In this document: positions 17,617 through 41,807 of the stretch, in pieces
How positions within the stretch are numbered: position 1 is the first letter of the stretch
Layout: every line of letters begins with the position of its first letter
The notes under the pieces: model-generated
Databases searched by the model: none
Told to the model about the DNA's origin: nothing
Seen by the model: the letters and a program-made list of their open reading frames with translations, nothing else
Source of the DNA: Prorocentrum cordatum
Taxonomy: Eukaryota
Direction of reading: 5' to 3'
Assembly (NCBI GenBank): GCA_963575745.1
Contig: CAUYUJ010000268.1
Span: 62,001-116,061, forward strand
DNA: 54,061 nt
Made by a program: the position numbers and the translations under genes

Positions 17617-18465
17617 CTTCTCGGGCGCGCAGCGGCCGACAGTCTGGGCGAGACTGCCCCCCCTTCGGCAGGCTCGGTTAGGGGGGGCGCGTCGCCGACC
17701 CTATCAAGCCTGCCGACGACGCAAGAGCTGCAACCACTTCCCACCCCCGGCCGCATGGCCGGCGACCTCCCGAAAGAAAGCCTTTTAAGGTTTAAGGCCG
17801 CTGGCTTTTAAATTCTCCAAAGCGCTCTAAGCGCTCCCAGGCGCCCCCTGGCGCCCCCAGACGCTCCAGGGCGCTCCAAGGCGCCCCCAGGCGCTCCCAG
17901 GCGCCCCCGGGCGCTCCCAGGCGCCCCCAGGCGCCCCAGGCGCTCCCAGGCGATCCCAGGCGCCCCCAGGCGCTCCCAGTCCCAAGCGCCCCAGGCGCTC
18001 CCAGGCGCTCCCGGCGCGCTCCCGGCACGCTCCCAGGCGCTCCCAGGCGCCCCCGGTCGGCAGGCTCGATTGGGGGAGCGCGTCGCCGAACCGATCTAGC
18101 TTGCCGACGACAGAAGAGCTGCAACCACTTCCCACCCCCGGCCGCATGGCCGGCGACCTCCCAAACTAAAGCTTTTTAGAGTTCAGGGCCGCTGGCCCCT
18201 AAATTCCCAAATGCGTTCTAAGCGCTCCCAGGCGCTCCCAGGCACTCCCAGGGCGCTCCCAGGCGCTCCCAGGCGCTCCCGGCGCGCTCCCGGCACGCTC
18301 CCAGGCGCTCCCAGGCGCTCCCGGCACGCTCCCGGCACGCTCCCAGGCGCCCCCCGGCGCTCCCAGACGTTCCCAGGCGCCCCCAGGCGCTCCCAAGTGC
18401 GCCCAGAGGCGTTTAGAGCGCCCCACACGTGTTTTTACGTGTCGGAGAAGCGCAGCACCCCGCGG
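17617..18465 (+). mobile_element. Telomere-flanked non-coding module, family D copy 1 (copy 2 at ~27163-27720)
   Basis: Shared start cttct..gcgcagcggccgacagtc, shared agagctgcaaccacttcccacccccggccgcatggccggcgacctccc, (GCGCTCCCAG)n interior, and shared end cacacgtgtttttacgtgtcggagaagc. Confidence 0.6.
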
Positions 18466-18486: not shown

Positions 18487-20345
18487 TCTAACAGGCTTGG
18501 CCACGATTACAACTTGCCCACGAACCCACCTACGGTGGCCGTCAATCCCACCCGCAAGCCACCCCACCATAAAGATCATCTCTCCTCTCCTTGAAACAAC
18601 ATCGGCGCAAACGAAGACGACGGCAAACGACGACGAGGACGACCGCGCGTTGCTTTTATTGTTAATTGCCCTGGACCTATCCCGCCACTGTGCTATAGCA
18701 TGGCATAACACAGCAGGGGTCTCCAAAAAGTGGTGACCCCTATGTGCGCGTCGCCTTTGACTGTTACCTGCCCTATGCCTATCCCGCCACCGTCTATAGC
18801 ATGGCATGGCACGGCATGGGTCCCCAACAAGTGGGGACCCCTATGTGCGCGTTGCTTTTATTGTTAATTGCCCTGGGCCTATCCCGCCACTGTGCTATAG
18901 CATGGCATAACACAGCAAAGTCCCCCAAAAGTGGGGACCCCTTATGTGCGCGTCGCCTTTTATTGTTACTTGCCCTAGGCCTATCCCGCCACTGTGCTAT
19001 AGCATGGCATGGCACAGCATGGGTCCCCAAAATGTGGGGACCCCAATGTGCGCGTTACCTTTTACTCCTATCGCCCTAGGCATATCCCGCCACTGCGCTA
19101 TGGCATGGCATAGCACAGCATGGGTCCCCAAAATGTGGGGACGTCTACGCGCGCGTTGATTTACTCGTACTTGCCCTAGGCTTATCCCGCCACGGTGCTA
19201 TAGCATGGCATAGCACAACATGTGCCCTCAACAAGTGGGGGGCCCTATGTGCGCGTTGCCTTTTACTATTTGCCCTATGCCTATCCCGCCACTGTGCTAT
19301 AGCATGGCATAGCACAGCATGGGCCCCAAAAAAGTGGGGACCCCTATATGCGGACAAGTAACAGTAAAAGACAGCGCACATAGGGGTCCCCACTTTTTGG
19401 ATACCCATGACTTGCTATGCCATGCTATGGCATAGTGGCGGGATAGGCCGAAGGCAAGTAACAGTAAAGTACGGCGCGCACATGCGTGCACAGAAAAGCA
19501 TGAACAAGAAGAACATATAATGACAAATGATGAGGCGGAGAGAAGTGGGGAGGTAGCTGGCAATCGAGACACACTCGAGATAATTGTTAAACTTCAACAC
19601 CCGTGTGCCCCATACAAGCGAAACGGTTCGGGCAGACGGCCCCTAACGAGCGCGACAGATCGGGTCGGGCGATGGCACGCGAGTACCCTAGCGGACGGGA
19701 CGGGTCGGCCAAGCAAAACGACCAGGACGAATCAGGTCGGGCGAAAGAGATTCTGCACGCATACGCAGCAAATGCTATTTTTTTGAAAAGAAAAATATGC
19801 TCGCAAGGGGGGCGGGGCACTTTGTAATGTAAAATACAAGAGATTCTGCACGCATGCTCCGCAAATGCTATTTTTTGCAGTAGATGGACCGGATTTACAT
19901 AACCAGGTGGCAAGGGGGGCCGGGCACTTTATATGTAGTACAAAAGATTACGCACGCTTGCTCAGCATGTGTTTTTTTCCAATAGATGAACGCGGAACGC
20001 ATCAGGGACCAGGTAATTTGTAATGTGAAATACAAGAGATTCTTCACGCATGCTCAGCAAATGCTTTTTTCTTGCAGTAGATGGAGCTGGTTTACATAAA
20101 CCGGTCGCGACGGGGGCCGGGCACTTTGTATTGTAAAATACAAGAGATTATGCGCGCATGCTCAGCAAATGATATGTTTTGCAGTAGATGGGACCGGGTC
20201 GCAACGGGGACAGGGCACTTTGTAATGTAAAATATATGAGATTCTGCACGCATGCTCAGGAAATGATATTTTCCAGTAGATGGAGCGGGTTTGCATGGTG
20301 ACCGGTTTTAGGTTATTCAGGGTTTAACCATTATAGGGTTAGAAA
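18487..20345 (+). mobile_element. Telomere-flanked non-coding module, family C copy 1 (shorter copy at ~26490-27134)
   Basis: Shared start ctaacaggcttggccacga..aaagatcatctctcctctccttg and a shared ~100-bp subrepeat (gagattctgcacgcatgctcag..gcagtagatggagcggg) near the right end. Confidence 0.6.
18644..19480. repeat. About 100-bp tandem repeat (7 units) followed by about 1.2 inverted units
   Basis: atcccgccac recurs at 99-102 bp spacing from ~18679 to ~19283; a reverse-complement unit lies at ~19355-19480. Confidence 0.9.
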
Positions 20346-20366
20346 TTTAGGGTTTAGGGTTTAGGG

Positions 20367-21704
20367 TGTTGCCCGCCAAGCGGTGTGGGCGCGCGCACGC
20401 ATCCCACCCCCATATCCAGATTGTTGGGGGTGGGATGCTGTGTGCGCGCTCGCGTTGCTTGTCCTCCCGCCCCAATCCACCCCGGCTATTTTCTTTTAGG
20501 GTTTAGGGACACAGAGAGTTCTTCCCCCCAGCCCCCACTCATGGGGGGTCGATCACAGCGTCGTCCCACCTGAGAGCGCGCAGGCGCTGTAACGCATTGG
20601 GGAACAGCCTCCAGCTTTAGTTCGCGCGTTGGGGAACGCCCGACCGGGCGATCTCTTCCGACTCTCGCAGGGGCGGTTCTGCGCGGTGGCGCACGCGCAG
20701 CGGTTTGCTGGCCAACGAGGTGTCGTACCTTGTGGCCCATGTTACGCTGGCGACGCCAGAACCGCGCCTGCGCGCTCTTTTTCGATGCCCAAGCGCGCTG
20801 GCGAGCGCATATGGCGATTGAAGTAAACTTACGCAGATGCCTCAATCTCAGAAGCGATCATGGTGGGGGGGACCAGCTCGCCGGACGCTCCGCGGCTCGC
20901 GCGCGCGCGCGAGGTTCCCGCGCTGACACCACGTCGTCCTCTAGAGTCTCCGGGGTTCGTTCGCGCGTTGGGGGACGCCCGACCGGGCGACCTTTTCCGA
21001 TTCTCGCAGGAGCGATTCTGCGCGGTGGCGCACGCGCAGCGCTTTGTCTCGGATGGCGGGAGGGGGAGCTCGAGGGGGCGGGCCTGGCGCCCCCTCGATG
21101 CGACGCACCAGGCAGCGCGTCGCGTGCGTCAGCCGGCCGGCCGGCCGGCCGTCCAGCCGTCGAGTGTATTCCTTATCGCTGAAGTACGTTGGCGACGCCA
21201 GAACCGCGCCTGCGCGCTCTTTTTCGGTGCGCAGGCGCGCTGGCGAGCGCATATCGCGATTGGGGTAAAATTACGCATCCGCTTCAATCTCAGAGGGGAT
21301 CATGTTGCGCCACGACAACGGGGACCAGTGCGCCGGACGCTCCGCGGCTCGCGCGCGCGCGCGAGGTTCCCGCGCTGGGGACCCCCTGGGAGCGCTTGGG
21401 GAGCCTCTGGGACGCGTGGAAGCGCCTGGGGAGCGCTTGGGAGCCCGCCCAGGCGCGCCTGGGGGCGTTTTCTAGGTTTTCCTAAGTTCCTGGGGCAACA
21501 TTGCCCCCGCTGGCGTTGGGTTCCGGTTTTCGGGTTCTTATTTCCTGCTACGCAGGTAGCCTGTGGCGTAGCCAGCCTGAGGCGTGGCGTGTGGGCGGTC
21601 GAGCTTAACCTCTCCCTTTCCGTAGATCCTTCAGGCGCTCCACTGAACGTTCCGACCAAGGCTCGTATGCGTCTGGGGCATCCCGACAGCGACGCATACT
21701 CGAG
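20367..21704 (+). mobile_element. Telomere-flanked non-coding module, family A copy 1
   Basis: Start tgttgcccgccaagcggtgtggg and end gacgcatactcgag are shared with the copies at 21719-22976 and 23832-25196; truncated copy at 30530-31066. Confidence 0.75.
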
Positions 21705-21718
21705 TTTAGGGTTTAGGG

Positions 21719-22976
21719 TGTTGCCCGCCAAGCGGTGTGGGCGCGCGCACGCATCCCACCCCCACATCAAGATTGTTGGGGGTGGGATGCTGTGTGCGCG
21801 CTCGCGTTGCGTGTCCTCCCGCCCCAATCCACCCCGGCTATTCTCTTTTAGGGTTTAGGGACACAGAGAGTTCTTCCCCACAGCCCCTACTCATGGGGGT
21901 GTCGAACACCACGTCGTCCTACCTGAGAACGCGCAGGCGCTGTAACGCATTGGGGAACAGCCTCCAGGCCGACCGGGCGCTCTTTTTCGGTGCACAGGCG
22001 CGCTGGCGAGCGCATATCGCGATTGGGGTAAAATTACGCATATGCTTCAATCTCAGAGGGGATCATGTTGCGCCACGATAACGGGGACCAGTTCGCCGAA
22101 CGCTCCGCGGCTCGCGCGCGCGCGCGAGGTTCCCGCGCTGGGGACCCCCTGGGAGCGCTTGGGGAGCTTCTGGGACGCGTGGGAGCGCCTGGGGGGCGCT
22201 TGGGAGCGCGCCCAGGCGCGCTGGCCGGCAAGGTTGACGCAACGCTATCCCCAGGCAAGTGGAAGAGCACGAAGTGGCTTACAGTTGGCTCCGGGCATCC
22301 AAAATGTGGCCCGGGAATGGAGTTCTGGGAAGTCGAAGAGCACGAAGTGGCCTACAGTTGGCTCCGGGCATCCAAAATGTGGCCCGGGAATGGAGTTCTG
22401 GGAAGTCGAAGAGCACGAAGTGGCCTACAGTTGGCTCCGGGCATCCAAAATGTGGCCCGGGAATGGAGTTCTGGGAACTCGAAGAGCACGAAGTGGCCTA
22501 CAGTTGGTTCCGGGCATCCAAATGTGGCCCGGAAAGTTCTGGGAGGTCTGGGAATGTCGAAGAGCACGAAGTGGCTTACAGTTGGCTCCGGGCATCCAAA
22601 ATGTGGCCCGGGAATGGAGTTCTGGGAAGTCGAAGAGCACGAAGTGGCTTACAGTTGGTTCCGGGCATTCAAAATGTAGCCCGGGAATGGAGTTCTGGGA
22701 CGTCGAAGACCACGAAGTGCGAGATTGTTTGCTTAAAGCGAGCCCGGGCCCGGGGGGTTCTGGGGGCAACATGCGCGCTTGCTGGCATTTGGTTCCGGCT
22801 TTCGGTTTCTTATTTCTTGCTACGCAGGTAGCCTGTGGCGTAGCCAGCCTGAGGCGTGGCGTGTGGGCGGTCGAGCTTAACCTCTCCCTTTCCGTAGATC
22901 CTTCAGGCGCTCCACTGAACGTTCCGACCAAGGCTCGTATGTGTCTGGGGCATCCCGACAGCGACGCATACTCGAG
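21719..22976 (+). mobile_element. Family A copy 2 (internal deletion plus 73-bp array)
   Basis: Same termini as copy 1; bounded by TTTAGGG on both sides. Confidence 0.75.
22260..22720. repeat. 73-bp tandem repeat, about 6 units
   Basis: gaagagcacgaagtgg recurs at 22262, 22335, 22408, 22481, ~22559, ~22632, ~22705. Confidence 0.92.
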
Positions 22977-22997: not shown

Positions 22998-23454
22998 CCT
23001 CGCTGGGCGGAAGCAGCTCGACCCCCCCTCCTTCGAGAGGTTGGAGGGGTCGGCTGCTATTCGTTCCCGTTCCCACCCCCCGCCCAAAAGTACCCCTTTA
23101 GGGCTTAGGGTTGTTCTACCCCCCCTCTTTCCCCCCTTCTCATGCGGGGAAGCTCCTTGCTGGCGGCGACCATCTTCTGGCGTCTATCATCTGTCAATAT
23201 ACCCCCTTTCGCCCCCCTTCGCATGGGGGGTAGCTTTCTCTTGCTCGGGGCCGCATCTTGCACGCAGGGTGATCTTTTGGTTTTCATGTAGAATTTCCTG
23301 GGGAAGGGCTTGGTATATCGGCGACAGGGAATACCCAGCGCAACAGCCGCACTGCACATCCCATGACGATCGAGCGCTCCAGGAGCCCCCCAACGCTCAA
23401 GCGCCACGCAAGGCAGCGCGCTACCGATGTCACGAGCGGGCCTGGCCTGGCCTG

Positions 23455-23490
<36 letters not shown>

Positions 23491-23812
23491 CCAAGCGCTT
23501 TCAAGCGCTCCCAAGCGCTCCCAAGCGCTCCCAGGCGCTCCCAAGCGCTCCCAGGCGCTCCCGGGCGCTGCCCAGCGCTCCCCGGCGTTCCCATGCTTGT
23601 TTGGCCGGGCTGAGCGGGTAGGGGTGTCACGAGCGGGCCTGGCCTGGCCTGGCGCTCCCAGGCGCTCCCAGGCGCTCCCAAGCGCTCCCAGGCGCTCCCA
23701 AGCGCTGCCCAGCGCTCCCCGGCGCCCCCATGCTTGTTTGTCCGGGCGGAGCGGGTAGGGGTGTCACGACCGCCTGGCCTGGCCGGGCGCTCCCAGGCGC
23801 TCCCAAGGGGTC
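22998..23812 (+). mobile_element. Telomere-flanked module H (single copy)
   Basis: 5' hairpin, internal TTTAGGGCTTAGGG at 23097-23110 and (GCGCTCCCAG)n, the same layout as families A, D and E. Confidence 0.45.
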
Positions 23813-23831
23813 TAAGGTTTAGGGTTTAGGG

Positions 23832-25196
23832 TGTTGCCCGCCAAGCGGTGTGGGCGCGCGCACGCACCCCACCCCCACATCAAGATTGTTGGGGGTGGGA
23901 TGCTGTGTGCGCGCTCGCGTTGCGTGTCCTCCCGCCCCAATCCTCCCCGGCTATTCTCTTTTAGGGTTTAGGGACACAGAGAGTTCTTCCCCCCAGCCCC
24001 CACTCATGGGGGTGTCGAACACCACGTCGTCCTACCTGAGAACGCGCAGGCGCTGTAACGCATTGGGGAACAGCCTCCAGGTTTAGTTCGCGCGTTGGGG
24101 AACGCCCGACCGGGCGATCTCTTCCGACTCTCGCAGGAGCGGTTCTGCGCGGTGGCGCACGCGCAGCGGTTTGCCGGCCAACGAGGTGTCGCACTTTGTG
24201 GCCCATGTTACGCTGGCGACGCCAGAACCGCGCCTGCGCGCTCTTTTTCGATGCCCAGGCGCGCTGGCGAGCGCATATGGCGACTGAAGTAAACTTACGC
24301 AGATGCCTCAATCTCAGAAGCGATCATGGTGGGCCACGACAAAGGGGACCAGCTCGCCGGACGCTCCGCGGCTCGCGCGCGCGCGAGGTTCCCGCGCTGA
24401 CACCGCGTCGTCCTAGAGTCTCCGGGGTTCGTTCGCGCGTTGGGGGACGCCCGACCGGGCGACCTTTTCCGATTCTCGCAGGAGCGATTCTGCGCGGTGG
24501 CCCACGCGCAGCGCTTTGTCTCGGATGGTGGGAGGGGGAGCTCGAGGGGGTGGGCCTGGCGCCCCCTCGATGCGACGCACCAGGCAGCGCGTTGTGTGCG
24601 TCAGCCGGCCGGCCGGCCGGCCGTCCGGCCGTCGAGTGTATTCCTTATCGCTGAATTACGTTGGCGACGCCAGAACCGCGCCTGCGCGCTCCTTTTCGGT
24701 GCGCCGCCGCGCTGGCGAGCGCATATCGCGATTGGGGTAAAATTACGCATGTGCTTCAATCTCAGAGGGGATCATGTTGCGCTACGACAACGGAGACCAG
24801 TTCGCCGGACGCTCCGCGACGCGCGCGCGCGCGAGGTTCCCGCGCTGGGGGCCCCCTGGGAGCGCTTGGGGAGCCTCTGGGACGCGTGGGAGCGCCTGGG
24901 GAGCGCCTGGGAGCGCGCCCAGGCGCGCTGGGAGCGCCTGGAGAGCCCCTGGCAGCGTTTTCCTAGGTTTTCCTAGGTTCCTGGGGGATCTGGTAGGCTT
25001 GCTGTGATTGGGTTCCGGCCTTGGGGTTCTTATTTCCTGCTACGCAGGTAGCCTGTGGCGTAGCCAGCCTGAGGCGTGGCGTGTGGGCGGTCGAGCTTAA
25101 CCTCTCCCTTTCCGTAGATTCTCCAGGCGCTCCACTGAACGTTCCGACCAAGGCTCGTATGCGTCTGGGGCACCCCGACAGCGACGCATACTCGAG
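23832..25196 (+). mobile_element. Family A copy 3
   Basis: Colinear with copy 1 over its whole length, same termini. Confidence 0.75.
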
Positions 25197-25217: not shown

Positions 25218-26488
25218 TCCACTAGCCCAAACTTGCAGCCCACTTGACCGTGTCCCACCCACCCATGACCCAAGACATATTGATCTCGATGCGGTATCAA
25301 CGCGCGACTCGCAAAACGACGACGAGGACGACACCGATGACGACGACGTTGATATTGTTTTCAAAACGACGACGACGCGGCCGCGCAAAGACACCTGGGA
25401 CGCGGCTGCAACGGCGATGCGGCCCGCGCGCGTGACGACGCGATTTGAAGAACCACGTTTTTTGACGCGAGTCCCTGTGCGATGCAGGGACGCCGCCCAG
25501 CGGCGGAGAGGTTGCACGCAAGATCCACGTTTATTGACGCGAGTCCCTGTGCGACGCAGGGACGCCGCCCAGCGGCGGCGAAGTTGCACGCAGTGGTTGC
25601 CCAAGGCGCGCGGGATGACTCGTTGCCCCGAAGAGAGGGATCCCCCTGTGCATCCTCGGGACTGCGCCGCGGCGCGCAAAGGCCGATGCAAGGGCGATGC
25701 GACGCGCGCGCGCGAGGGGCGCGCCCTGGGATTTGCAGGTCCTCCCAGAACGCCATTCCTGGCGCTCCGAGGGCAAGGATCTGCGCGAGGGGTGCGCCAA
25801 AATGGGGGGGGCGGCCGAAGGAGGGACTTTAGGGCGGCGGAAGGCGTTTCAGGATTTAAATCTTTATAGGCTCTTTTTTTTTAGGGCCCACTAGCCCAAA
25901 CTTGCAGCCCACTTGGCCGTGTCCCACCCACCCGCGACCCAAGACATATTGATCTCGATGCGGTATCAACACGCGACTCGCAAAACGACGACGAGGACGA
26001 CACCGATGACGACGACGTTGATATTTGTTTTCAAAACGACGACGACGCGGCCGCGCAAAGACACTTGGGACGCGGCTGCAACGGCGATGCGGCCCGCGCG
26101 GCACGGCGCGCGGAGGCCGATGCAAGAGCGATGCGATGCGCGCACGCGCGGCGCCGTCATCGGTGTCGTCCTCGTCGTCGTTTTGCGAGTCGCGTGTTGA
26201 TACCGCATCGAGATCAATATGTCTTCGGTCATGGGTGGGTGGGACACGGTCAAGTGGGCTGCAAGCTTGGGATTTGCGGATCGGGCCAGAACGCCATTCC
26301 TGCTGCTCCGAGGCCAAGGATCTGCGTGAGGGGCGCACCCTGGGATTTGCAGATCCTCCCAGAACGCCATTCCTGGCGCTCCGAGGGCAAGGATCTGCGT
26401 GAGGGGTGCGCCAAAATGGGGGGCGGCCGAAGGGGGGACTTTAGGGCGGCGGAAGGGATTTCATGATTTAAATTCTTATAGGCTCTTA
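25218..26488 (+). mobile_element. Family B, two tandem copies (25218-~25875, 25887-~26488); third copy at 27939-~28635
   Basis: Shared start ccactagcccaaacttgcagcccacttg and shared end atttaaat..ttataggctctt. Confidence 0.6.
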
Positions 26489-27364
26489 GTTTCTAACAGG
26501 CTTGGCCACGAGCACACCTGCCCCACGAACCCACCTGCGGTGGCCGTCAATCCCACCCGAGAGCCACCCCATCACAAAGATCATCTCTCCTCTCCTTGGA
26601 ACAACATCGGTGCAAACGAACCCGACCGCGCGCGGCGAGTTGGTCCAGGAGATGGAGGCGGTGTACATGAGGGGGTCGCAGTGTGTATTGTAAAATACAA
26701 GGGATTCGGCACGCATGCTCAGGATGGAGCATGCGCAGGATCAGGAAATGCTATTTGTTGCAGTAGATGGAGCGGGTTTACATAACGGGGTCGCAACGGG
26801 GGGCGCCCACTTTGTGTTGTAAAAAATAAGAAAGTCTGCACGCATGCGCTGGAAATGCTATTTTGTTGCAGTAGATGGAGCGGGGTCGCGACGGGAGCCG
26901 CCCACTTTGTGCTGTAAAAAAAGAAAAAGAAATGCTGCACGCATGCTCAGGAAAGGTTATCTTTTGCAGTAGATGGAGCGGGGTCGCAACGGGGACTGGG
27001 CACATTGTGCTGTAAACAATATATGAGATTCTGCACGCATGTGCAGGAAATGCTATTTTTTGCAGTAGAAGGAGCGGGATTGCATAACGTTCGGTTTTAC
27101 AGTAATTAGGATTTAAGAATTATAGGATTAAGAATTTAGGGTTTAGGGTTTAGGGTTTAGGGCTTCTTTTAGCGCAGCGGCCGACAGTCAAGGCAAGGCT
27201 GCCCCCCTTTCGGCAAGCTTGATTGGGGGGGCGTTTAGCCGACCCGATCAAGCTTGGCGAAGGGCGCAAGAGCTGCAACCACTTCCCACCCCCGGCCGCA
27301 TGGCCGGCGACCTCCCAAACTAAAGCCTTTTAGGGTTTAGGGCCGCTGGCCCCTAAATTCCCAA

Positions 27365-27421
<57 letters not shown>

Positions 27422-27557
27422 CCCGGCGCTTCCAGGCGCTCCCAAGCGCTCCCAAGCGCTCCCAGGCGCTCCCAGGCGCTCCCAAGCGCTCCCAGGCGCT
27501 CCCCGGCGCTCCCAAGCGTTCCCGAGCGCTCCCAGGCGCTCCCAAGCGCTTCCCGCA

Positions 27558-27602
<45 letters not shown>

Positions 27603-28654
27603 CCAGACGCTCCCAGGCGCCCCCAGGCGCTCCCACATGCGCCCAGAGGCGCTCGGAGCGCTCCACACGTGTTTTTACGTGTCGGAGAAGCAGAGGGGGG
27701 GAATTACAAGTCAAAAGTCTCTGGGTTTAGGGTGTTATATTCTTCGAGGATCAGGAGGAGTTTATCTTTGAATCGCGACTCCCAAGGGGCAGCCTACGGC
27801 TGCATGGGCGACCCAGTCTGGCAACCAGCTGACGCTTCTCAGAGATGCCCTGTCTCTCGTAGACGGCGACGGTGATGCGCGGTGGGGTGGGCAGAAGCAC
27901 AACGAGGTGCTTGGGAATTTAGGGTTTAGGGTTTAGGGTCCACTAGCCCAAACTTGCAGCCCACTTGACCGTGTCCCACCCACCCATGACCCAAGACATA
28001 TTGATCTCGATGCGGTATCAACACGCGACTCGCAAAACGACGACGAGGACGACACCGATGACGACGACGTTGATATTGTTTTCAAAACGACGACGACGCG
28101 GCCGCGCAAAGGCACCTGGGACGCGGCTGCAACGGCGATGCGGCCCGCGCGCGTGACGACGCGATTTGAAGAACCACGCTTTTTGACGCGAGCCCCTAAG
28201 CGATGCAGGGACGCCGCCCAGCGGCGGAGAGGTTGCACGCAAGATCCACGTTTATTGACGCGAGTCCCTGTGCGACGCAGGGCCCCCCGCGGTCGCCGTG
28301 GGCGCACCGCCCAGCTGGCCCGCGGCCGCCTGCGCCGCCGAAGGGTCGGCGCGCCGCCCCGCGTCCGCCGGGCCGCCCTCCCGCGAGCTCGCAGAGGGGG
28401 GGCCGCAGCGCCCGCGGCCGCCTCGCCCGCCGCGGAGGCGCCCGGCGCCATTCCTGGCGCTCCGAGGCCAAGGATCTGCGTGAGGGGCGCACCCTGGGAT
28501 TTGCAGATCCTCCCAGAACGCCATTCCTGGCGCTCCGAGGGCAAGGATCTGCGCGAGGGGTGCGCCAAAATGGGGGGGGGCAGCCGAAGGAGGGACTTAG
28601 GGGCTTTTAAGATTTAAATGTTTATAGGCTCTTAGTTTTTAGGGTTTAGGGTTT

Positions 28655-28921: not shown

Positions 28922-28954
<33 letters not shown>

Positions 28955-30400: not shown

Positions 30401-31097
30401 AGGGTTTAGGGTTTAGGGTTAGGGTTTAGGGTTTAGGTTTTAGGTTTTAGGGTTTGGGGTTTGGGGTTTGGGGTTTGGGGTTTTGGGTTTTGGGTTTTGG
30501 GTTTAGGGTTTAAGGTTTCGGGTTTAGGGTGTTGCCCGCCAAGCGGTGTGGGCGCGCGCACGCATCCCACCCCCACATCAAGATTGTTGGGGGTGGGATG
30601 CTGTGTGCGCGCTCGCGTTGCTTGTCCTCCCGCCCCAATCCACCCCGGCTATTCTCTTTTAGGGTTTAGGGGCACAGAGAGTTCTTCCCCCCAGCCCCCA
30701 CTCAAGGGGGTGTCGAACACCACGTCGTCTCACCTGAGAACGCGCAGGCGCTGTAACGCATTGGGAATGGGGAACCGCCTCCAGGTTTAGTTCGGCGCGT
30801 TGGGGAACGCCCGACCGGCGATCTCTTCCCGACTCTCCCGCAGGAGCGTGCTGCCGCGGTGGCCACCACGCGCAAGCGGTTTGCAGGCCAACGAGGTGTC
30901 GTACTTGTTGCCCAGGTTCCCTGGCAACGCCAGAAACCGCGCCTGCGCGCTCTTTTTCGATGCCCAGCGCGCTGGCGAGCGCTATGGCGATTGAAGTCAA
31001 ACATACGCAGATCCTCAATCTCAGAAAGCATCATGGTAGAGAACGACAAAGGGGACCCAGCCTACGAGGGTTTAGGTTAGGGTTCAGGGGTTTAGGG

Positions 31098-32651: not shown

Positions 32652-34155
32652 CCTGCATTAGAGAAAGCGCGCGCTGGCTGCGATCCCCCCCACATCAAGG
32701 TTGTTGGGGGGGATCGCTGCCCAGGCCGCGCGCGCCACGGTTAGTCGCACTCCCGCCCCAGACCACCCAGAGTGAAGCCTTTTAGGGTTTAGGGTTTCTC
32801 CCCCCAACCCCCCTATCCCGGGGGGCTGTCGAAGTGGTGCGCGCAGGCGATCGCCGACGCGGCCGTGGCACTGCGCATCCACTTGAGCATGCGCGCAGGG
32901 CGCGTGACGTAGGCGCGTCGGCTCGGCGCCTCGTCGAAGAGGCAGCCTTTGGCGATTTCGGCGTTGAGCTTCGCCGTTGGGCTGCCGCTGGCGCAGCATG
33001 TCCATGCGTTGCTGCATGTGCCTTCGGCACTGGGTTGCGACACTGGGCCGTGAATGTTGGGATGCGCGCGTGCGGCCGCGGCCGTAGCAATGCGCGCCGA
33101 TGCGAGCACGCGCGCAGGGTGCATGGCGCTGGCGCGTCAGGTCGCCTCGTCGATGAGGCAGCCGTTTGCACCTTCGGCGTGGAGCGTCGTCGGTGGGCTG
33201 CCGCTGGCGCAGCCTGTCCACAGGGGTCCGGCATCTGCTTTCGGCATTGGAAAGCAGCACTGCGAAGGCGCTGGCGCGGCAATCCCATGGTTCCCCGTGG
33301 GCCTGGAGCGAGTGGTTGCGCCGTCGGGCTCCTCGCTGACGGCGACGCGTACGGCAGTTACATTCGCCCGCGGCGTTGGGTTTCGATTTTTGGGTTCGCC
33401 CTCCCGCTGAAGCGATTGCAATCATCGACGCAGCCGCCTTCGGCGCGAGCTTCGGACGGCTGGAGGGGGAGCGCGAGGGGGTGGGTCTGGCACCCCCTCG
33501 CTGCGATGCGCGCGCATGGCTGCGGCAGCACCTCCATGGCAGAGCCCGTGGAATTCCTTGGGGGGGCCCTCTGGCAGCGCTGGGAGAGCGCCTGGAGCTT
33601 CCCCCTGGGGCCGCCTGGAACCGCCTGGGCACGCTTGGGAGCGCGCGGGAGCGCGCGGGAGCGCATGGGAGCGCCGCGTGGCGCCTTGGAGCGCTTGTGG
33701 GTGCTTAAGAGCGCGTGGGAATGCTTGCGCGCCTGGGAGCACCTGCGAGCGCCAGGGAGCGCTTAGGAGCGCTTCGGAGTCGTGGCAGCGCTGGGAACGC
33801 TGGGGAGCGCCTGCGAGCGCCTGGGAGCGCGCCAGGAGCGTGCCGGGAGCGCTTGGGAGCGCCTGCGAGCGCCGGGAGCGCTTGGGGGCGTGCCGGGAGC
33901 GCTTGGGAGCGCCTGGGAGCGCCTGGGAGCACGCGCCTGGGAACGCGCTTGGGGGCGTGCCGGGAGCGCCCAGGAGCGCTTGGGAGCAATTGGGAGCGCG
34001 TGGGAACGCCTGGAACCGTGCCGAGAGCGCCTGGGAGCGTGCCGGGAGCGCCTGAAGCGCTGTGGAGCGCTTGGGAGCGTGCCCGGAGCGCCTGGGAAAG
34101 CTTGGAAGCGCTTGGGAGCGCTTGGGAGCGCCTGGGAGCGCCTGGGAGCGCTTGG

Positions 34156-34187
<32 letters not shown>

Positions 34188-34564
34188 ACGCCTGGGAGCG
34201 CCTGGGAGCGTGCCGGGAGCGCTTGGAAAGTCCTTGGGAGCGCCTGGAGCGTTTGGAAGCGCTTGGAGCGCCGCATGCGGTAATTTCATAGGTTTGGAGC
34301 ACCCAGAGCGCACCGCATGCTGTATTTTCATAGGTTTGGAGCCCCAGGGGATGTAGCGACTCGCGGGGGACCCGCTTGCTAGGGCTGAGGGTTAGGGGTT
34401 CCTTTTCTTAGGAGAACACCACGGGGATGCACCGCGCGGCGTGCGAATTCCTCCTCGGCGGCTATCGCCGCTTCGTCGGTGCGGCGTACGCTGCATGGGC
34501 AGGCTCGCTGAGCGCTCGGCCAGACGCCACGGGCTACGGACGTTGCACCGCCCGCGGCTTGCAG
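32652..34564 (+). mobile_element. Family E non-autonomous element (1.9 kb), relative of the RepHel element
   Basis: The first ~900 bp align with 34607-~35430 and the last ~250 bp align with ~48230-48479. Interior is (GGGAGCGCCT)n. Flanked by TTTAGGG tracts. Confidence 0.85.
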
Positions 34565-35449
34565 TTTAGGGTTTAGGGTTTAGGGTTTAGGGTTTAGGGT
34601 TTAGGGCCTGCAGGGGCGCATGCGCGCGCTGGCTGCGACCCCCCCCCACATCAGGGTTGTTGGGGGGGATCGCTGTCCAAGCCGCGCGCGCTATGAACTT
34701 GCACTCCCGCCCCAGACCACCCACAGTAAAGCCCTTTGAGTTTAGGGTTTCTCCCCCCACCCCCCCCTATCACGGGGGGCTATCGAAGTGGCGCGCGCAG
34801 GCGATCGCCGACGCGGCCGTGGCATTGCGCATCCACGTGAGCACGCGCGCAGGGCTGCCCCTGGCGCAGCATGTCCGTGCGTTGCCGTTTTGCCTTCGGC
34901 ACTGGGTTGTGACACTGGGGTGCGAATGCTGGGAAGCGCGCGTGCTGTCGCGGCCGTGGCAATGCGCGCCCATGCGGGCACGCGCGCAGGGTGCATGGCG
35001 CTCGCGCGTCAGCTCGCCTCGTCGATGAGGCAGCCGTTTGCACCTTCGGCGTGGAGCGTCGCCGGTGGGCGGCCGCTGGCGCAGCATTTCCACAGGGGTC
35101 CGGCATTTGCCTTCGGCATTGGAAAGCAGCACTGCGAAGGCGCTGGCGTGACAATACAATGGGTTCCCCTGCGCCTCAAGCGAGTGGCTGCGCCGTCGGG
35201 CTCCTCGCTGACGGCGACGCGCACGGCAGTTGCATTCGCCCGCGGCTTTGGGTTTCGCCTTTGGGGTCGCCCCCGCTGAAGCGATTGCAATCATCGACGC
35301 AGACGCTGTCGACGCGAGATTCGGAAGGCGGGAGGAGGAGCGCGAGGGGGTGGGTGTGGCACCCTCTCGCTACGATGCGCGCGCATGGCTGCGGCAGCAC
35401 CTCCACGGCAGACCCCTTGAAATGCTTGGGGGGATTTCTGTGGAAGCCA

Positions 35450-38400
35450 GGGTCGGCCTCGCCCTTGCGCCCGCTGCGGCCGCGGCCCACGCCCGGCGCG
35501 GCGCCGGGCGGCCTCGGGGCGCTCTCTGCGGCCTCGGGGCGCTATCTCCGAGCTATCTTTGAAGGACGCCACAGACGGCGCCTTCGGTCTCGCCCTTGCG
35601 CCCGCTGCGGCCGCGGCCCGCGCCCGGCGTGGCGCCTGGCGCTCTCTGGGCGCTATCTCCGAGCTATCTTTGAAGGACGCCACAGACGGCGCCTTCGGCC
35701 TCGCCCCCGCGCCCGCTGCTGCCGCGGCCCACGCTCGGCGTGGCGCATGGCGCTCTATAGGCGCTATCTCCGAGCTATCTTTGAAGGACGCCACAGACGG
35801 CGCCTTCGGCCTCGCTCCCGCGCTCGCTGCGGCCGCGGCCCACGCCCGGCGTGGCGCCTGGCGCTCTCTGGGCGCTATCTCCGAGCTATCTTTGAAGGAC
35901 GCCACAGACGGCGCCTTCGGCCTCGCTCCCGCGCTCGCTGCGGCCGCGGCCCACGCCCGGCGTGGCGCCTGGCGCACTCTGGGCGCTATCTCCGAGCTAT
36001 CTTTGAAGGGCGCCACAGACGGCGCCTTCGGCCTCGCTCCCGCGCCCGCTGCGGCCGCGGCCCACGCCCGGCGTGGCGCCTGGCGCTCTCTGGGCGCTAT
36101 CTCCGAGCTATCTTTGAAGGACGCCACAGACGGCGCCTTCGGCCTCGCTCCCGCGCCCGCTGCGGCCGCGGCCCGCGCCTGGCGTGGCGCCTGGCGCACT
36201 CTGGGCGCTATCTCCGAGCTATCTTTGAAGGACGCCACAGACGGCGCCTTCGGCCTCGCTCCCGCGCCCGCTGCGGCCGCGGCCCACGCCTGGCGTGGCG
36301 CCTGGCGCACTCTGGGCACTATCTCCGAGCTATCTGTGAAGGACGCCACAGACGGCGCCTTCGGCCTCGCCCCCGCCTTTGCGCCCGCTGCGGCCGCGGC
36401 CCACGCCAGGCGTGCCTCGGGCGCTCGTGAGCGCTATCTCCGAGCTATCTTTGAAGGATGCCACAGTCGGCGCCTTCGCTGTAGCCTTTGCGCCCGCTGC
36501 GGCCGCCGCCCACGCCGGGCGTGCCTCGGGCGCTCGTGAGCGCTATCTCCGAGATATCTTTGAAGGACGCCACAGTCGGCGCCTTCGCTGTAGCCTTTTG
36601 CGCCCGCTGCGGCCGCAACCCGCGCCAGGCGTGCCGCGGGCGCCCGTGAGCGCTATCTCCGAGCTATCTTTGAAGGACGCCACAGTCGGCGCCTTCGCTG
36701 TAGCCTTTGCGCCCGCAGCGGCCGCCGCCCACGCCAGGCGTGCCGCGGGCGCTCGTCAGCGCTATCTCCGAGCTATCTTTGAAGGACGCCACAGTCGGCG
36801 CCTTCGCTGTAGCCTTTGCGCCCGCTTCGGCCGCCGCCCACGCCAGGCGTGCCTCGGGCGCTCGTGATCGCTATCTCCGAGCTATCTTTGAAGGACGCCA
36901 CAGTCGGCGCCTTCGCTGTAGCCTTTGCGCCCGCTGCGGCCGCAGCCCACGCCAGGCGTGCCTCGGGCGCTCGTGAGCGCTATCTCCGAGCTATCTTTGA
37001 AGGACGCCACAGTCGGCGCCTTCGCTGTAGCCTTTGCGCCCGCTGCGGCCGCGTCCCACGCCAGGCGTGCCTCGGGCGCTCGTGAGCGCTATCTCCGAGC
37101 TATCTTTGAAAGACGCCACAGTCGGCGCCTTCGGTGAAGCCTCTGCGCCCGCTGCGGCCGCCGCCCACGCCAGGCGTGCCTCGGGCGCTCGTGAGCGCTA
37201 TCTCCGAGCTATCATTGAAGGGCGCCACAGCTGGCGCCTTCGCTGTAGCCTTTGCGCCCGCTGCGGCCGCCGCCCACGCCAGGCGTGCCTCGGGCGCTCG
37301 TGAGCGCTATCTCCGAGCTATCTTTGAACGACGCCACAGCTGGCGCCTTCGCTGTAGATTTTGCAGCCGCTGCGGCCGCACCCCACGCCAGGCGTGCCTC
37401 GGGCGCTCGTGAGCGCTATCTCCGAGCTATCTTTGAAGGGCGCCACCGCCGGCGCCTTCGCTGTAGCCTTTGCGCCCGCTGCGGCCGCCGCCCACGCCAG
37501 GCGTGCCTCGGGCGCTCGTGAGCGCTATCTCCGAGCTATCTTTGAAGGACGCCACAGTCGGCGCCTTCGCTGTAGTTTTTGCGTTCGCTGCGGCCGCAAC
37601 CCCACGCCAGGCGTGCCTCGGGCGCTCCTGAGCGCTATCTCCGAGCTAATCTTGAAGGACGCCACAGTCGGCGCCTTCGCTGTAGCCTTTGCGCCCGCTG
37701 CGGCCGCCGCCCACGCCAGGCGTGCCTCGGGCGCTCGTGAGCGCTATCTCCGAGCTATCTTTGAAGGACGCCACAGTCGGCGCCTTCGCTGTAGCCTTTG
37801 CGCCCGCTGCGGCCGCCGCCCACGCCTGGCGTGCCTCGGGCGCTCGTGAGCGCTATCTCCGAGCTATCTTTGAAGGACGCCACAGTCGGCGCCTTCGCTG
37901 TAGCCTTTGCGCCCGCTGCGGCCGCCGCCCACGCCAGGCGTGCCGCGGGCGCTCGTGAGCGCTATCTCCGAGTTATCTTTGAAGGACGCCACAGTCGGCG
38001 CTTTCGCTGTAGCCTTTGCGGCCGCTGCGGCCGCTGCCCACGCCAGGCGTGCCTCGGGCGCTCGTGAGCGCTATCTCCGAGCTATCTTTGAAGGACGCCA
38101 CAGCCAGGCGTGCCTCGGGCGCTCGTGAGCGCTATGTCCGAGCTATCTTTGAAGGACGCCACAGTCGGCGCCTTCGCTGTAGCTTTTGCGCCCGCTGCGG
38201 CCGCCGCCCACGCCAGGCGTGCCTCGGGCGCTCGTCAGCGCTATCCCCGGGCTATCTTTGAAGGACGCCACCGTCGGCGCCTTCGCTGTAGCCTTTGCGC
38301 CCGCTGCGGCCGCCGCCCACGCCAGGCGTGCCTCGGGCGCTCGTGAGCGCTATCTCCGAGCTATCTTTGAAGGACGCCACAGTCGGCGCCTTCGCTGTAG

Positions 38401-41140
38401 CCTTTGCGCCCGCGGCGGCCGCCGCCCACGCCAGGCGTGCCTCGGGCGCTCGTGAGCGCCATCTCCGAGCTATCTTTGAAGGGCGCCACAGTCACGCCAC
38501 AGTCGGCGCCTTCGCTGTAGCCTTTGCGCCCGCTGCGGCCGCCGCCCACGCCAGGCGTGCCTCGGGCGCTCGTGAGCGCGATCTCCGAGCTATCTTGAAG
38601 GACGCCACAGTCGGACGCCTTCGCCTGTAGCCTTTGCAGCCCCATGCTGCGGCCGCACCCCGCCAGGCTTGCCCTGGGCGCTCGTGAGCGCAATCTCCGA
38701 GCTCTCTTTGAAGGACGCCACAGTCGGCGCCTTCGCTGTAGCCTTTGCGCCCGCTGCGGCCGCGGCCCACGCCAGGCGTGCTTCGGGCGCTGCTGAGCGC
38801 TATCTCCGAGCTATCTTTGAAGGACGCCACAGACGGCGCCTTCGCTGTAGCCTTTGCGCCCGCTGCGGCCGCCGCCCACGCCAGGCGCGCCTCAGGGCCC
38901 GCCGCAGTCGGCGCCTACGCTGTACTTTTGCGCCGCCCGGGCCCGCCGCCCACGGCCAGGCCGGCATCGGGCGCTTCGTGAGCGCAGGTGCTCGAAGCTA
39001 TCTTTTGAATGTCGCCACAGACGGCGCCTTCGCTGTAGCCTTTGCGCCCGCTGCGGCCCGCGGCCCACGCCAGGCGTGCCGCGGGCGCTCGTGAGCGCTA
39101 TCTCCGAGCTATCTTTGAAGGACGCCACAGTCGGCGCCTTCGCTGTAGCCTTTGCGGCCGCTTCGGCCGCCGCCCACGCCAGGCGTGCCTCGGGCGCTCG
39201 TGAGCGCTATCTCCGAGCTATCCTTGAAGGACGCCACAGTCGGCGCCTTCGCTGTAGCCTTTGCGGCCGCTGCGGCCGCCGCCCACGCCAGGCGTGCCTC
39301 GGGCGCTCGTGAGCGCTATCTCCGAGCTATCTTTGAAGGACGCCACAGTCGGCGCCTTCGCTGTAGCCTTTGCGCCCGCTGCGGCCGCGGCCCACGCCAG
39401 GCGTGCCTCGGGCGCTCGTGAGCGCTATCTCCGAGCTATCTTTGAAGGACGCCACCGTCGGCGCCTTCGCTGTAGCCTTTGCGCCCGCTGCGGCCGCGGC
39501 CCACGCCAGGCGTGCCTCGGGCGCTCGTGAGCGCTATCTCCGAGCTATCTTTGAAGGACGCCACAGTCGGCGCCTTCGCTGTAGCCTTTGCGCCCGCTGC
39601 GGCCGCCGCCCACGCCAGGCGTGCCTCGGGCGCTCGTGAGCGCTATCTCCGAGCTATCTTTGAAGGACGCCACAGTCGGCGTCTTCGCTGTAGCCTTTGC
39701 GCCCGCTGCGGCCGTCGCCCACGCCAGGCGAGCCTCGGGCGCTCGTGAGCGCTATCTCCGAGCTATCTTTGAAGGACGCCACGGTCGGCGCCTTCGCTGT
39801 AGCTTTTGCGCCCGCTGCGGCCGCCGCCCACGCCAGGCGTGCCTCGCGCGCTCGTCAGCGCTATCTCCGAGCTATCTTTGAAGGACGCCACAGTCGGCGC
39901 CTTCGCTGTAGCTTTTGCGCCCGCTGCGGCCGAGGCCCACGCCAGGCGTGCCTCGGGCGCTCGTGAGCGCTATTCTCCGAGCTATCTTTGAAGGACGCCA
40001 CAGTCGGCGCCTTCGCTGTAGCCTTTGCGCCCGCTGCGGCCGCCGCCCACGCCAGGCGTGCCTCGGGCGCTCGTGAGCGCTATCTCCGAGCTATCTTTGA
40101 AGGACGCCACAGTCGTCGCCTTCGCTGTAGCCTTTGCGGCCGCTGCGGCCGCGGCCCACGCCAGGCGTGCCTCGGGCGCTCGTGAGCGCTATCTCCGAGC
40201 TATCTTTGAAGGACGCCACAATCGGCACCTTCGCTGTAGCCTTTGCGCCCGCTGCGGCCGCCGCCCACGCCAGGCGTGCCTCGGGCGCTCCTGAGCGCTA
40301 TCTCCGAGCTATTTTTGAAGGACGCCACAGTCGGCGCCTTCGGTGTAGCCTTTGCGCGGGCTGCGGCCGCAAACCACGCCAGGCGTGCCTCGGGCGCTCC
40401 TCAAGCGCTATCTCCGAAACTATCTTTGAAAGGAAGCACAGTCGGCGCCTTCGCTTGTAGCCTTTGCGCCGCGCTGCGGCCGCCGCCCGACGCCAGGCCG
40501 TGGCCTCGGGCGCTCGTGAGCGCTATCTCCGAGCTATCTTGAAGGATCCATCATCGGCGCCTTCGCTGTAGCCTTTGCGCGCGCCACCGTCGGCGCTTCG
40601 CTGTAAGCCTTTGGCGGCCGCTGCGGCCGCCGCCCACGCCGGCGTGCCGGGGCGCTCGTGAGCGCTATCTCCGGCTATCTTTGAAGGACGCCACAGTCGG
40701 CCGCCTTCGGCTGTAAGCCTTTGCGGCGGCTGCGGCGCGCAACCCCGCCGGGCGTGCCTCGGGCGCTCGTGAGCGCTTATCTCCGAGCTAATCTTTGAAG
40801 GACCCACAGCGGCGCCCTTCGCTGTAGCCTTTGCGCCCCGCTGCGGCCGCGGCCCACGCCAGGCGTGCCTCGGGCGCTCGTGAGCGCTATCTCCGAGCTA
40901 TCTTTGAAGGACGCCACAGTCGGCGCCTTCGCTGTAGCCTTTGCGCCCGCCGCGGCCGCGGCCCACGCCAGGCGTGCCGCGGGCGCTCGTGAGCGCTATC
41001 TCCGAGCTATCTTTGAAGGACGCCACAGTCGGCGCCTTCGCTGTAGCCTTTGCGGCCGCTGCGGCCGCCGCCCACGCCAGGCTTGCCTCGGGCGCTCGTG
41101 GGCGCCATCTCCGAGTTATCTTTGAAGGGCGCCACAGTCG
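35450..41140. repeat. Tandem array: about 8 units of 111 bp, then about 43 units of 109 bp
   Basis: gctatctccgagctatctttgaaggacgccacag recurs with 111-bp period (35541-36318), then 109-bp period. Indel-rich patches at ~38570-39060 and ~40330-40850. Confidence 0.97.
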
Positions 41141-41695: not shown

Positions 41696-41717
41696 TCCGT
41701 TGCCGCTTTGGCTCAAG
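41696..41717 (+). other. Relic dinoflagellate spliced-leader (DinoSL) sequence upstream of the RepHel start
   Basis: TCCGTTGCCGCTTTGGCTCAAG versus DinoSL DCCGTAGCCATTTTGGCTCAAG: 19/22, ungapped, 90 nt before ATG 41808. Confidence 0.75.
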
Positions 41718-41807
41718 CCTGATTTCGCCACCGCTTGGCACGCGCACCTGGCAGCCATCGTTGGCAGGCATCAGCCTCGCATCCACCTTCAGCGCACTCT
41801 CGCGGCG

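Follow-up and report, generated by a model that had tools for sequence, protein, structure and literature searches.

Two telomere repeats within the left ends of putative Helitron-type elements in a Prorocentrum cordatum telomere-repeat array

Why should an element that inserts into telomere repeats carry two more of these repeats inside its own left end? The question is raised by a 54,061-nt stretch of DNA from Prorocentrum cordatum (GenBank assembly GCA_963575745.1, contig CAUYUJ010000268.1, positions 62,001 to 116,061 of the forward strand). In this report the whole stretch is called the window and is numbered from its first base. From approximately 17.6 to 48.5 kb the window holds a one-way array of elements separated by short TTTAGGG tracts. 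Families are denoted by letters and copies by numbers, and the coordinates are collected in Table 1. Copy A1 opens with a hairpin, a C-rich box, an internal dimer of the telomere repeat (TTTTAGGGTTTAGGG) and a second hairpin. The elements of the array are very probably Helitron-type rolling-circle elements, and the opening stretch of A1 is very probably their left terminal sequence (LTS). The dimer is likely to be under selection, for transposition, because it is far better conserved than the spacers that flank it.

Insertion site and left-end module

The window DNA is GC-rich and eukaryotic. The closest proteins are from Prorocentrum cordatum (92–96% identity) and more distant ones are from Symbiodinium natans. 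A green-algal origin of the DNA was considered and rejected. Dinoflagellate telomeres are given as (TTTAGGG)n in the available text of PMC11453091. The pattern TTTAGGGTTTAGGG has 36 matches in the window, all 36 of them on the + strand, and none in 100 shuffles. Each TTTAGGG tract of the array is followed by a different sequence, and all array elements have the same orientation. Left junctions lie directly after ..TTTAGGG in 18 of 18 cases (15 in the window and one each in L001, L003 and L035, three loci from other contigs that are described below). In each of these 18 junctions, which represent approximately 11 independent families, the element begins with a pyrimidine. At the right ends an in-phase T(T)TAGGG comes next. 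Insertion is between GGG and TTT of (TTTAGGG)n, in one orientation and phase, without duplication or loss. The targeted strand is the G-rich one, because by Helitron convention the strand read from the LTS to the right terminal sequence is the one that is cut and moved. For the bat element Helraiser, the sections of PMC5876387 at hand describe cutting and joining of this plus strand alone. The target G-strand would be single-stranded in the 3' overhang and would be the lagging-strand template for forks heading to the chromosome end.

The LTS module measures approximately 150–230 nt and consists of hairpin 1, the C-box (CCCRCCCC, 2–3 nt, CCACCC), a spacer of approximately 11 nt, TTTTAGGGTTTAGGG and hairpin 2. 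Intact dimers are present in the four A copies (offset from the left end 127 nt), E1 (128), D2 (165) and G (95). Degenerate dimers are found in E2, D1 (TTTTAAGGTTTAAGG, offset 166) and H (TTTAGGGCTTAGGG, offset 99). An earlier, sequence-only reading of the window had listed these positions, the CCACCC motifs and the offsets (127, 128, 95, 165–166 and 99 nt), and all of them are correct and far beyond chance. The hairpin arms that it named in family A (21751–21764 and 21777–21790) and family E (32680–32692 and 32705–32717) were found as well. It had, in addition, called the families unrelated. This applies to the interiors only, as the left ends align as homologues. In the ten aligned cores (E1, E2, G, A1–A4, H, L001 and L035) the dimer is followed by 5–15 variable bases, two C-runs, a T-C-A loop and a G-run, and on these alignments the left ends are taken to be homologous across families with unrelated interiors. 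Related left ends with unrelated interiors are usual for Helitron families that use related transposases. A second C/G hairpin, described before as usual, is present in A, E, G and H and missing in family D.

Among six lineages the dimer has a mean pairwise identity of 0.80 and the G-run one of 0.89; the values are 0.63–0.68 for the C-box, the C-runs and the loop, 0.39 and 0.25 for the two spacers and 0.18 for the sequence after the module. No change was found in the 15 nt of the dimer in A, E1, G, D2 and L035. The sequence examined for modules, short forms and covariance hits amounts to 102 kb. In all 14 modules of this set the dimer comprises exactly two units, after which the sequence of the same family resumes. 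The polarity of the dimer equals that of the G-strand target.

As had been proposed, a covariance model was built, here of the left-end core. It recovers the ten training copies and additionally the untrained D2 (2e-5), D1, a duplicate inside D1 and L003 (0.022). All hits are on the LTS strand, and nothing else is found at E<0.3 in the 102 kb. A search for CCACCC-N11-dimer with up to three mismatches gave ten matches, all on the + strand, with none expected from shuffles. Of the ten, 18455 is a plain telomere tract and 18157 is the internal duplication of D1. The possibility that the left piece is a separate mini-element fails, as in the same 102 kb neither a telomere tract directly before the post-dimer sequence nor a solo left piece was found. 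In addition, the gap of 29–44 nt between hairpin 1 and the dimer is too long for a Helitron right end (5–14 nt here).

The left ends fold as single-stranded DNA better than shuffled sequences in seven of seven tested cases (z –2.9 to –6.2). Pairing in hairpin 1 is kept despite differing sequence: 88% of the cells are paired and both sides have changed in 17 of 26 pairs. Its covariation score is 0.353; shuffles give 0.118, none of 500 reaching the observed value, and sliding the partners gives no more than 0.099. These scores come from an alignment that was fitted to the model and that has, as 7 of its 17 rows, the same palindromes read on the reverse strand. Hairpin 1 starts 9–20 nt from the element end. 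The distance to the dimer given above was taken from the folds of A, E, G and L001. The hairpin 1 loops of A and E are nearly identical (CATCAAGATTGT and CATCAAGGTTGT), and ATCAA is common to the loops of hairpin 1 in A and E and of hairpin 2 in G, L001 and L035. A half-model of the dimer with hairpin 2 also matches the flanking telomere tract of G together with its hairpin 1 (E 1.5e-4). TTCT-like bases follow the repeats at the true ends of D and G and also follow the dimer. Rfam gave no match to the left ends at gathering scores; in E-value mode the search returned nothing but sub-threshold matches of hairpin 1 to miRNA hairpins.

In family D the second repeat of the dimer can pair with CCCCTAAA, 7 nt downstream (27343–27358 in D2 and 17798–17813 in D1). 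In D1 transitions are seen on both sides (TTTAAGG and CTTTTAAA) and most of the pairing is retained. These two-sided transitions may reflect compensation or just deamination on both strands. D1 has a broken dimer and an internal duplication with a second, degenerate dimer copy. We read D1 as a probably old copy. No complement of the dimer was found elsewhere inside the A, E1 and H elements.

The RepHel transposase and its relatives

Copy E2 contains a long open reading frame (ORF) for a protein with a Rep part and a helicase part, here named RepHel. The Rep part has the motifs LFFTIAPWE (aa 898), HLHVLFF (the HUH motif, aa 1008) and YVSKYVAKF (aa 1118), the last being a two-tyrosine motif with its tyrosines four residues apart. 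The His and Tyr residues are invariant across 14 homologues. The helicase is of the RecD/PIF1 type and lies C-terminal to Rep (Walker A GKPGTGKT at aa 1523; Pfam AAA_30, 2.6e-20, aa 1512–1686), and solved PIF1 and RecD chains match it. A profile of the 14 homologues finds human PIF1 at 1.7e-17 and Helraiser at 0.0026, the latter with the helicase part only. An AlphaFold model of Rep (residues 800–1260) is of low confidence (pLDDT 46.8), and only the rank of the Helraiser match was used from it. Among 350,542 chains, Foldseek placed 7lcc_A, the Helraiser transposase bound to its LTS, at the top (E 0.014, probability 0.98). In this model the three Rep motifs are predicted to fall on a strand, a strand and a helix, as in HUH nucleases. 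The N-terminal third of RepHel contains a tandem series of three Cys-rich modules, each with the pattern C-x-F...(N/H)PGQ...C-x-W-C (aa 144, 316 and 404; 41862–42720). This region is a candidate for DNA binding and target recognition, without a match in Pfam or the ESM Atlas.

E2 encodes RepHel and has its ends in common with the non-autonomous copy E1; therefore the elements are considered to be Helitron-type. At the left approximately 900 nt are common to E1 and E2 with 89.5% identity (BLAST). The last approximately 90 nt are alike by eye, an unscored likeness for which BLAST listed no right-end match. The suggestion that an HUH enzyme is connected with these ends is confirmed by this RepHel gene. 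General Helitron features are present, namely a Rep with HUH and two-tyrosine motifs, a fused PIF1-like helicase, the absence of a target-site duplication and of inverted repeats of at least 8 nt joining the ends, and a right-end hairpin, which finishes 5 nt (A) and 14 nt (E) from the terminus. The terminal sequences are TGTTG../..CTCGAG in A and CCTGCA../..CTTGCAG in E, and TC starts occur in X and K only. The A and E ends and the GGG|TTT target lack the 5'-TC, CTRR-3' and A|T target of Helitron1. A 5' hairpin as in Helitron2 is found as hairpin 1 in A, E, G, H, D, L001 and L035. The asymmetric terminal inverted repeats of 8–15 bp that are typical of Helitron2 were not found: there is no exact complement of at least 8 nt at the expected places in A1–A3, E1 and E2. 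This test covers exact matches of at least 8 nt, and E has CTGCA/TGCAG at its very ends. Families of reverse transcriptase (RT), integrase and endonuclease are absent from nine long ORFs and from 53 more ORFs of at least 170 aa on both strands of the 17–49 kb region. E2 has no TnpB/Fanzor-like ORF.

A scan of metagenome contigs with the RepHel alignment yielded nine loci, two of which (L001 and L003) end in telomere repeats. The other seven have no telomere repeats and hence no left end. A C-box-like string in one of the loci, L008, is not a left end. L001 was chosen via the protein and blind to the dimer. It has an intact RepHel of 1918 codons that is 43% identical to that of E2. Its minus strand reads (TTTAGGG)n, hairpin 1, CCCACCACCTGCCACCCC, 11 nt, TTTTCGGGTTTAGGG and CCCCCC-TA-CCCCCC-TATCAA-GGGGGG. 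The dimer has an offset of 109 nt and differs from TTTTAGGGTTTAGGG by one change, and the rest of the module is complete. Thus, the dimer is kept between lineages with transposases only 43% identical. The RepHel gene of L001 is antisense to the LTS, with the module downstream of the gene; the module therefore tracks the element end and not the gene.

In L003 the C-box is kept, the dimer is degenerate and hairpin 2 is absent. Between its RepHel gene and its telomere-flanked left end lies an ORF fragment (7085–8191, minus strand) that matches eukaryotic RNA-dependent RNA polymerase (RdRP; PF05183, 4.2e-11). It is either a captured gene piece or a sign of two abutting elements, and the link between ORF and LTS in L003 is uncertain because of it. 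L035 (/L042) is a contig of 1,006 bp that begins with eight telomere repeats and a complete module (offset 118). It is probably dinoflagellate-like eukaryotic DNA mis-binned into a Myxococcota metagenome-assembled genome, which has no other telomere-bearing contig. It was the only related stretch among 28 obtained by a pattern scan of genome contigs. In viral contigs a first pattern gave four stretches, none of them related, and a second pattern gave none. L001, L003 and L035 have the same one-polarity telomere-flanked arrangement as the elements of the window.

Possible roles of the dimer

The best explanation overall, which we hold with about even confidence, is a Helitron LTS whose dimer mimics the target and serves as a binding unit for the transposase. 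The specific mechanism is tentative, as the step from a conserved dimer to one bound by RepHel is one that we infer. The LTS would consist of two tandem units of telomere repeat, spacer and C/G hairpin that are separated by the C-box. The outer unit would borrow its repeats from the flank and lose them on excision, while the inner unit (dimer and hairpin 2) would travel with the element and stay on the excised circle. A telomere-repeat-recognising part of RepHel would bind this unit in the manner of iterons beside the hairpin of a rolling-circle origin, and the same surface could hold the element end and capture the telomeric target. The dimer would aid target choice rather than decide it, and it would not be a Watson-Crick guide. 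A guide of the IS200/IS605 type had been suggested in the sequence-only reading. This idea does not agree with the polarity of the dimer, which is that of the target and allows no Watson-Crick pairing, nor with its position 29–44 nt 3' of hairpin 1. A complement of the target is not found at any fixed place in the left ends, and the bases 5' of hairpin 1 share no TTTAGGG complement. The other suggestion of that reading, a site bound by a telomere protein, is in modified form the explanation preferred here.

Several observations weigh against a transposase-binding dimer. The families X, K and M insert at the same GGG|TTT phase without a dimer; therefore the dimer is not the sole source of target choice. 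In E2, the sole autonomous copy of the window with an intact ORF, the first repeat is damaged. The L003 dimer is degenerate and its hairpin 2 is missing, for an ORF and an LTS that may not belong together. The sample is small (approximately 6–8 independent lineages) and L035 is a biased entry, since part of the dimer was built into the pattern that found it. Among the four A copies similarity is too high for a test, with no change in 15 nt where approximately 0.5 would be expected. In single-stranded folds the mean probability of being unpaired is 0.29–0.60 for the dimer compared with 0.40–0.52 for the whole LTS. A display of the dimer as a single strand between the hairpins is not borne out by these values. 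Furthermore, Pfam finds no family in the Rep and N-terminal parts of RepHel at E up to 10, the Helitron Rep family included. In the N-terminus Pfam identifies no DNA-binding domain, and the ESM Atlas (aa 120–480) gives no usable match.

A rather unlikely alternative is that DNA itself makes the contact: the dimer on the single-stranded transposon strand would be joined to the telomere by a bimolecular G-quadruplex or by pairing to the C-strand. C-strand pairing would produce a D-loop in which the HUH nuclease has access to the G-strand, and the PIF1-like helicase would form or resolve the structure. This agrees with the constant length of exactly two units on the transferred strand in the 14 modules and with the dimer changes in L001 and H, the two variant copies whose module is otherwise kept (L001 also has an intact ORF); these changes are at T/A positions and keep the GGG runs (three changes, chance approximately 0.2). 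The pairing partner must be in trans, since A, E1 and H hold no dimer complement. The helicase of RepHel belongs to the PIF1 family; PIF1 enzymes act on G-quadruplexes, and two-repeat telomere oligonucleotides form dimeric quadruplexes. The dimer-less families at the same site speak against such a tether, as does the second repeat of family D, which can pair inside the element, and in both hairpins the G-runs should be occupied by pairing with the C-runs. The more specific idea that the dimer is a portable copy of the landing site for homing at the DNA level on the single-stranded or circular intermediate, via such a quadruplex or D-loop with the PIF1-like helicase and HUH nuclease acting on the joint, is quite unlikely. 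If true, DNA-guided target capture would be seen for the first time in a eukaryotic transposon, and the Helitron-telomere mosaics would be part of chromosome-end maintenance in dinoflagellates. Recruitment of a host telomere protein is improbable. The protein could be a G-strand binder of the POT1/CST type that calls primase-polymerase alpha for the second strand of the circle, or a binder of double-stranded repeats that keeps the element in telomeric chromatin. The dimer is strand-fixed between two strong hairpins, a layout that resembles the single-strand origins of rolling-circle plasmids. The position of the module is also fixed relative to the element end, whatever the gene direction. Additionally, in the Helraiser model as set out in the available parts of PMC5876387 the peeled-off strand is copied by lagging-strand synthesis and the efficient donors are double-stranded circles, which would suit such a host factor. 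However, co-resident families do without a dimer, and a role after insertion predicts conservation in old copies, where the dimers of D1 and its duplicate have decayed.

The dimer might also be a frozen relic. An ancestral element starting right after the present dimer would have inserted next to a second left piece, at a distance of two telomere units, and the composite would have been mobile since, with a functionless dimer. Hairpin 2 lies 5–15 nt after the dimer, at the usual place of the Helitron2 5' hairpin as far as described in PMC3627910. The arrangement of repeat and C/G hairpin occurs twice in the LTS, TTCT-like bases follow both the true ends of D and G and the dimer, and L003 and E2 tolerate damage to it. 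This history is nevertheless improbable, too. The dimer stands at 0.80 identity against 0.25–0.39 for the spacers, is unchanged in A, E1, G, D2 and L035, and is kept between the divergent transposases of E2 and L001; short forms and solo left pieces are absent from the 102 kb. Very improbable is a promoter element resembling the plant telo-box, or a small structured RNA that acts as a top-strand guide or as a bottom-strand template similar to telomerase RNA. The bottom strand reads CCCTAAACCCTAAAA with a hairpin a few bases upstream, loosely resembling a telomerase template with its boundary helix, and in E2 the LTS is upstream of the gene. In L001, on the other hand, the module is downstream of and antisense to the gene, and in E2 a distance of 6.8 kb, which includes a 5.6-kb satellite, separates it from the ORF. 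These two copies exclude a promoter element tied to the gene. The lack of an Rfam match at gathering scores and of a TnpB/Fanzor-like ORF in E2 disfavors an RNA. Finally, the elements could be read on the minus strand as telomere-attached retroelements (endonuclease-deficient Penelope-like elements such as Athena and Coprina), the left end being their 3' end and short telomere stretches priming reverse transcription on the G-overhang. Elements of this kind have one orientation, a telomere-capped end and short internal telomere stretches near the opposite end, and the array shares this geometry. The probability of this reading is close to nil: RepHel lies inside an element with the E1-like left 900 nt (approximately) and right-end string, no RT ORF was found among the nine long and 53 further ORFs, and the right ends lack poly(A) and bear subterminal hairpins like those of Helitrons. 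Retroelements are contradicted by these three observations.

Comparison with known systems and other features of the array

To our knowledge, end recognition and target choice of Helitrons are still poorly understood, and Helraiser, with its two-base target, is the sole well-studied element. A 7-base target with an exact phase and a conserved target copy between hairpins would provide a concrete, mutable handle on target finding. The elements share with IS200/IS605 transposons (IS608) an HUH nuclease, subterminal hairpins at both ends, and an insertion that is specific for strand and sequence, occurs immediately 3' of a short constant sequence and leaves no target duplication. The targeted strand of IS608 is the lagging-strand template, as would be the case for the G-strand here. 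TnpA of IS608 has one tyrosine and no helicase, and the IS608 guide is a 4-nt stretch that sits at the 5' foot of the hairpin and base-pairs with the cleavage site. In contrast, RepHel has a two-tyrosine motif and a fused helicase, and the 15-nt repeat is identical to the target instead of complementary and lies 3' of hairpin 1. Rolling-circle replicons (geminiviruses, circoviruses and nanoviruses) have iterons beside the hairpin of the nick site and an HUH Rep. Their origins resemble the left ends in having a hairpin with a covarying stem and a conserved loop (nearly identical in A and E) and short direct repeats alongside, which are candidate Rep sites. In contrast to these origins, the repeats here equal the integration target, with one set outside the element, and judging from the junctions the nick falls at the element boundary instead of in the loop.

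Helraiser (PMC5876387; PDB 7lcc), as characterized in the available sections, has the same order of N-terminal region, Rep and PIF1-like helicase, an LTS of approximately 150 bp and a right-end hairpin near the terminus. It differs in its 5'-TC and CTAG-3' ends and its A|T target, and in these sections neither a 5' hairpin nor a target copy in the LTS is described. The Helitron2/Helentron group (Bao and Jurka 2013, PMC3627910) is similar, in the parts of the paper at hand, in having hairpins at both ends, no endonuclease domain and a pyrimidine as first base. There, too, RepHel is sometimes in the opposite direction, as in L001. Unlike here, the 5' hairpin of Helitron2 is placed 0–2 nt from the end (9–20 nt here), the target is T|T or T|C instead of GGG|TTT, and asymmetric terminal repeats of at least 8 nt are present, which the test described above did not find. 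An internal target copy and a C-box, both present here, do not appear in the Helitron2 description of these parts. A RepHel of Symbiodinium was placed at the base of Helitron2 and Helentron, according to the accessible text of Heringer and Kuhn 2021 (PMC8788227), so that a dinoflagellate host is common to it and the array.

The closest parallel in layout is found in Paramecium aurelia, where Helitrons are inserted in telomere repeats (Arnaiz et al., BMC Biol 2026, PMC13085455). As portrayed in the available text of that paper, they have one-polarity telomere flanks on both sides, an absolute orientation bias and an occurrence in arrays. Likewise, satellite-filled interiors (as in E2), ORF-less derivatives with the ends of autonomous elements, a variable ORF direction (as in L001) and an alveolate host are reported there; the likeness is one of layout. 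The Paramecium flanks are of the C-rich strand (C4A2) with the LTS toward the chromosome end, whereas the flanks here are G-rich and the right end would face the chromosome end. The Paramecium ORFs measure 9–10 kb compared with 5.7 kb here, and an internal telomere dimer, a C-box and paired C/G hairpins are not among the LTS features described in the main text of that report, as available. In its supplement the consensus sequences of the Helitron-associated satellites SAT72, SAT118 and CHBD0 contain C4A2-like strings, noted by eye, and internal telomere-like motifs may also be present in the Paramecium elements. Subtelomeric Helitrons in cnidarians and telomere-associated ones in Drosophila biarmipes are mentioned in the consulted part of PMC11934779. 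The literature search found no paper on telomere-specific Helitrons in dinoflagellates. New here are the phase-exact targeting of the G-strand in dinoflagellates and a left end built around a conserved target copy. The array would be the second case of telomere-repeat-specific Helitrons, again in an alveolate and on the strand opposite to that of Paramecium. This suggests that telomere Helitrons may have a long history at chromosome ends and be widespread there. In dinoflagellates, apparent telomere tracts of great length and interstitial telomere repeats may partly be mosaics of repeats and Helitrons.

Table 1. Features of the window (positions in window coordinates)
Feature	Position	Strand	Remarks
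Telomere tract (TTTAGGG)3 left of A1	20346..20366	+	A1 begins directly after GGG
A1	20367..21704	+	Whole non-autonomous copy; TTTAGGG after right end
A1 LTS	20367..20560	+	Stretch flagged at the outset
A1 hairpin 1	20387..20451	+	Long imperfect palindrome; C-run in 5' arm, G-run in 3' arm
A1 C-box	20466..20482	+	CCCGCCCCAATCCACCC; motif common to most left ends including dimer-less family X
A1 internal telomere dimer	20494..20508	+	TTTTAGGGTTTAGGG; offset 127 nt
A1 hairpin 2	20524..20548	+	Two C-runs, loop ACTCAT, G-run
A1 right-end hairpin		+	GTATGCGTC..GACGCATAC; 5 nt from terminus ..CTCGAG
A2	21719..22976	+	LTS 21719–21912; dimer 21846
A3	23832..25196	+	Dimer 23959; 92.9% identity to A1 over full length
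A4	30530..31070	+	Truncated; dimer 30657
D1	17617..18465	+	Decayed dimer 17783; duplication of LTS core inside, 18057–18215
D2	27163..27917	+	Dimer 27328, offset 165; without C/G hairpin 2
E1	32652..34564	+	Non-autonomous; right end ..GGCTTGCAG
E1 parts	32667–32735; 32752–32768; 32780–32794	+	Hairpin 1; C-box; dimer
E2	34607..48479	+	Autonomous; E-type LTS; degenerate dimer at 34735
E2 interior			109-bp satellite, RepHel ORF, 10-bp minisatellite, E-type right end
RepHel ORF	41466..47144	+	Open frame 41433–47144, 1903 aa; first Met is codon 12
Family G LTS	48508..48660	+	Dimer 48603, offset 95
H	22998..23817	+	Variant dimer TTTAGGGCTTAGGG at 23097, offset 99
Family X copy	18487..20345	+	Starts TC.. 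after TTTAGGG; C-box 18547–18564; without dimer
Family X, second copy	starts 26492	+	
Family K copies	25218..25879; 27939–28636	+	CCCACCCACCC present; without dimer; same insertion phase
Family M copy	28652		Without dimer; same telomere phase
10-bp minisatellite sites	17831–18406; 23454–23730; 27366–27635; 28816–29161; 29927–30207; 33604–34272; 47837–48158		

Satellites are a recurrent component of the array. Between the left end of E2 and its RepHel ORF there is a 109-bp satellite of approximately 50 units (35539–41140, 5.6 kb). A 10-bp minisatellite (GCGCTCCCAG, complement CCTGGGAGCG) is found in nearly every array element, in either orientation and in any family. Satellites of 28–37 bp with the composition (CGGGT)n CGGGCGG-ACCCTAA lie inside X-like and N elements (31221–31617 and 32047–32417). 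Their ACCCTAA is a C-strand-like telomere hexamer on the + strand, and C-strand words cluster in these satellites only. In the X copies the right ends (20290–20345 and 27095–27134) are AT-rich, decayed telomere-like strings, e.g. ggttttaggttattcagggtttaacc.., that follow a 94–96-bp repeat. Their appearance is that of old telomere tracts in which many G have changed to A.

For the element ending at 17595, the search for a left boundary found none. Further to the left of the array, long open frames of 927, 329 and 478 codons without a Pfam match are located on the minus strand (5516–10935), and a (AGT)n microsatellite of 970 bp spans positions 1780–2750.

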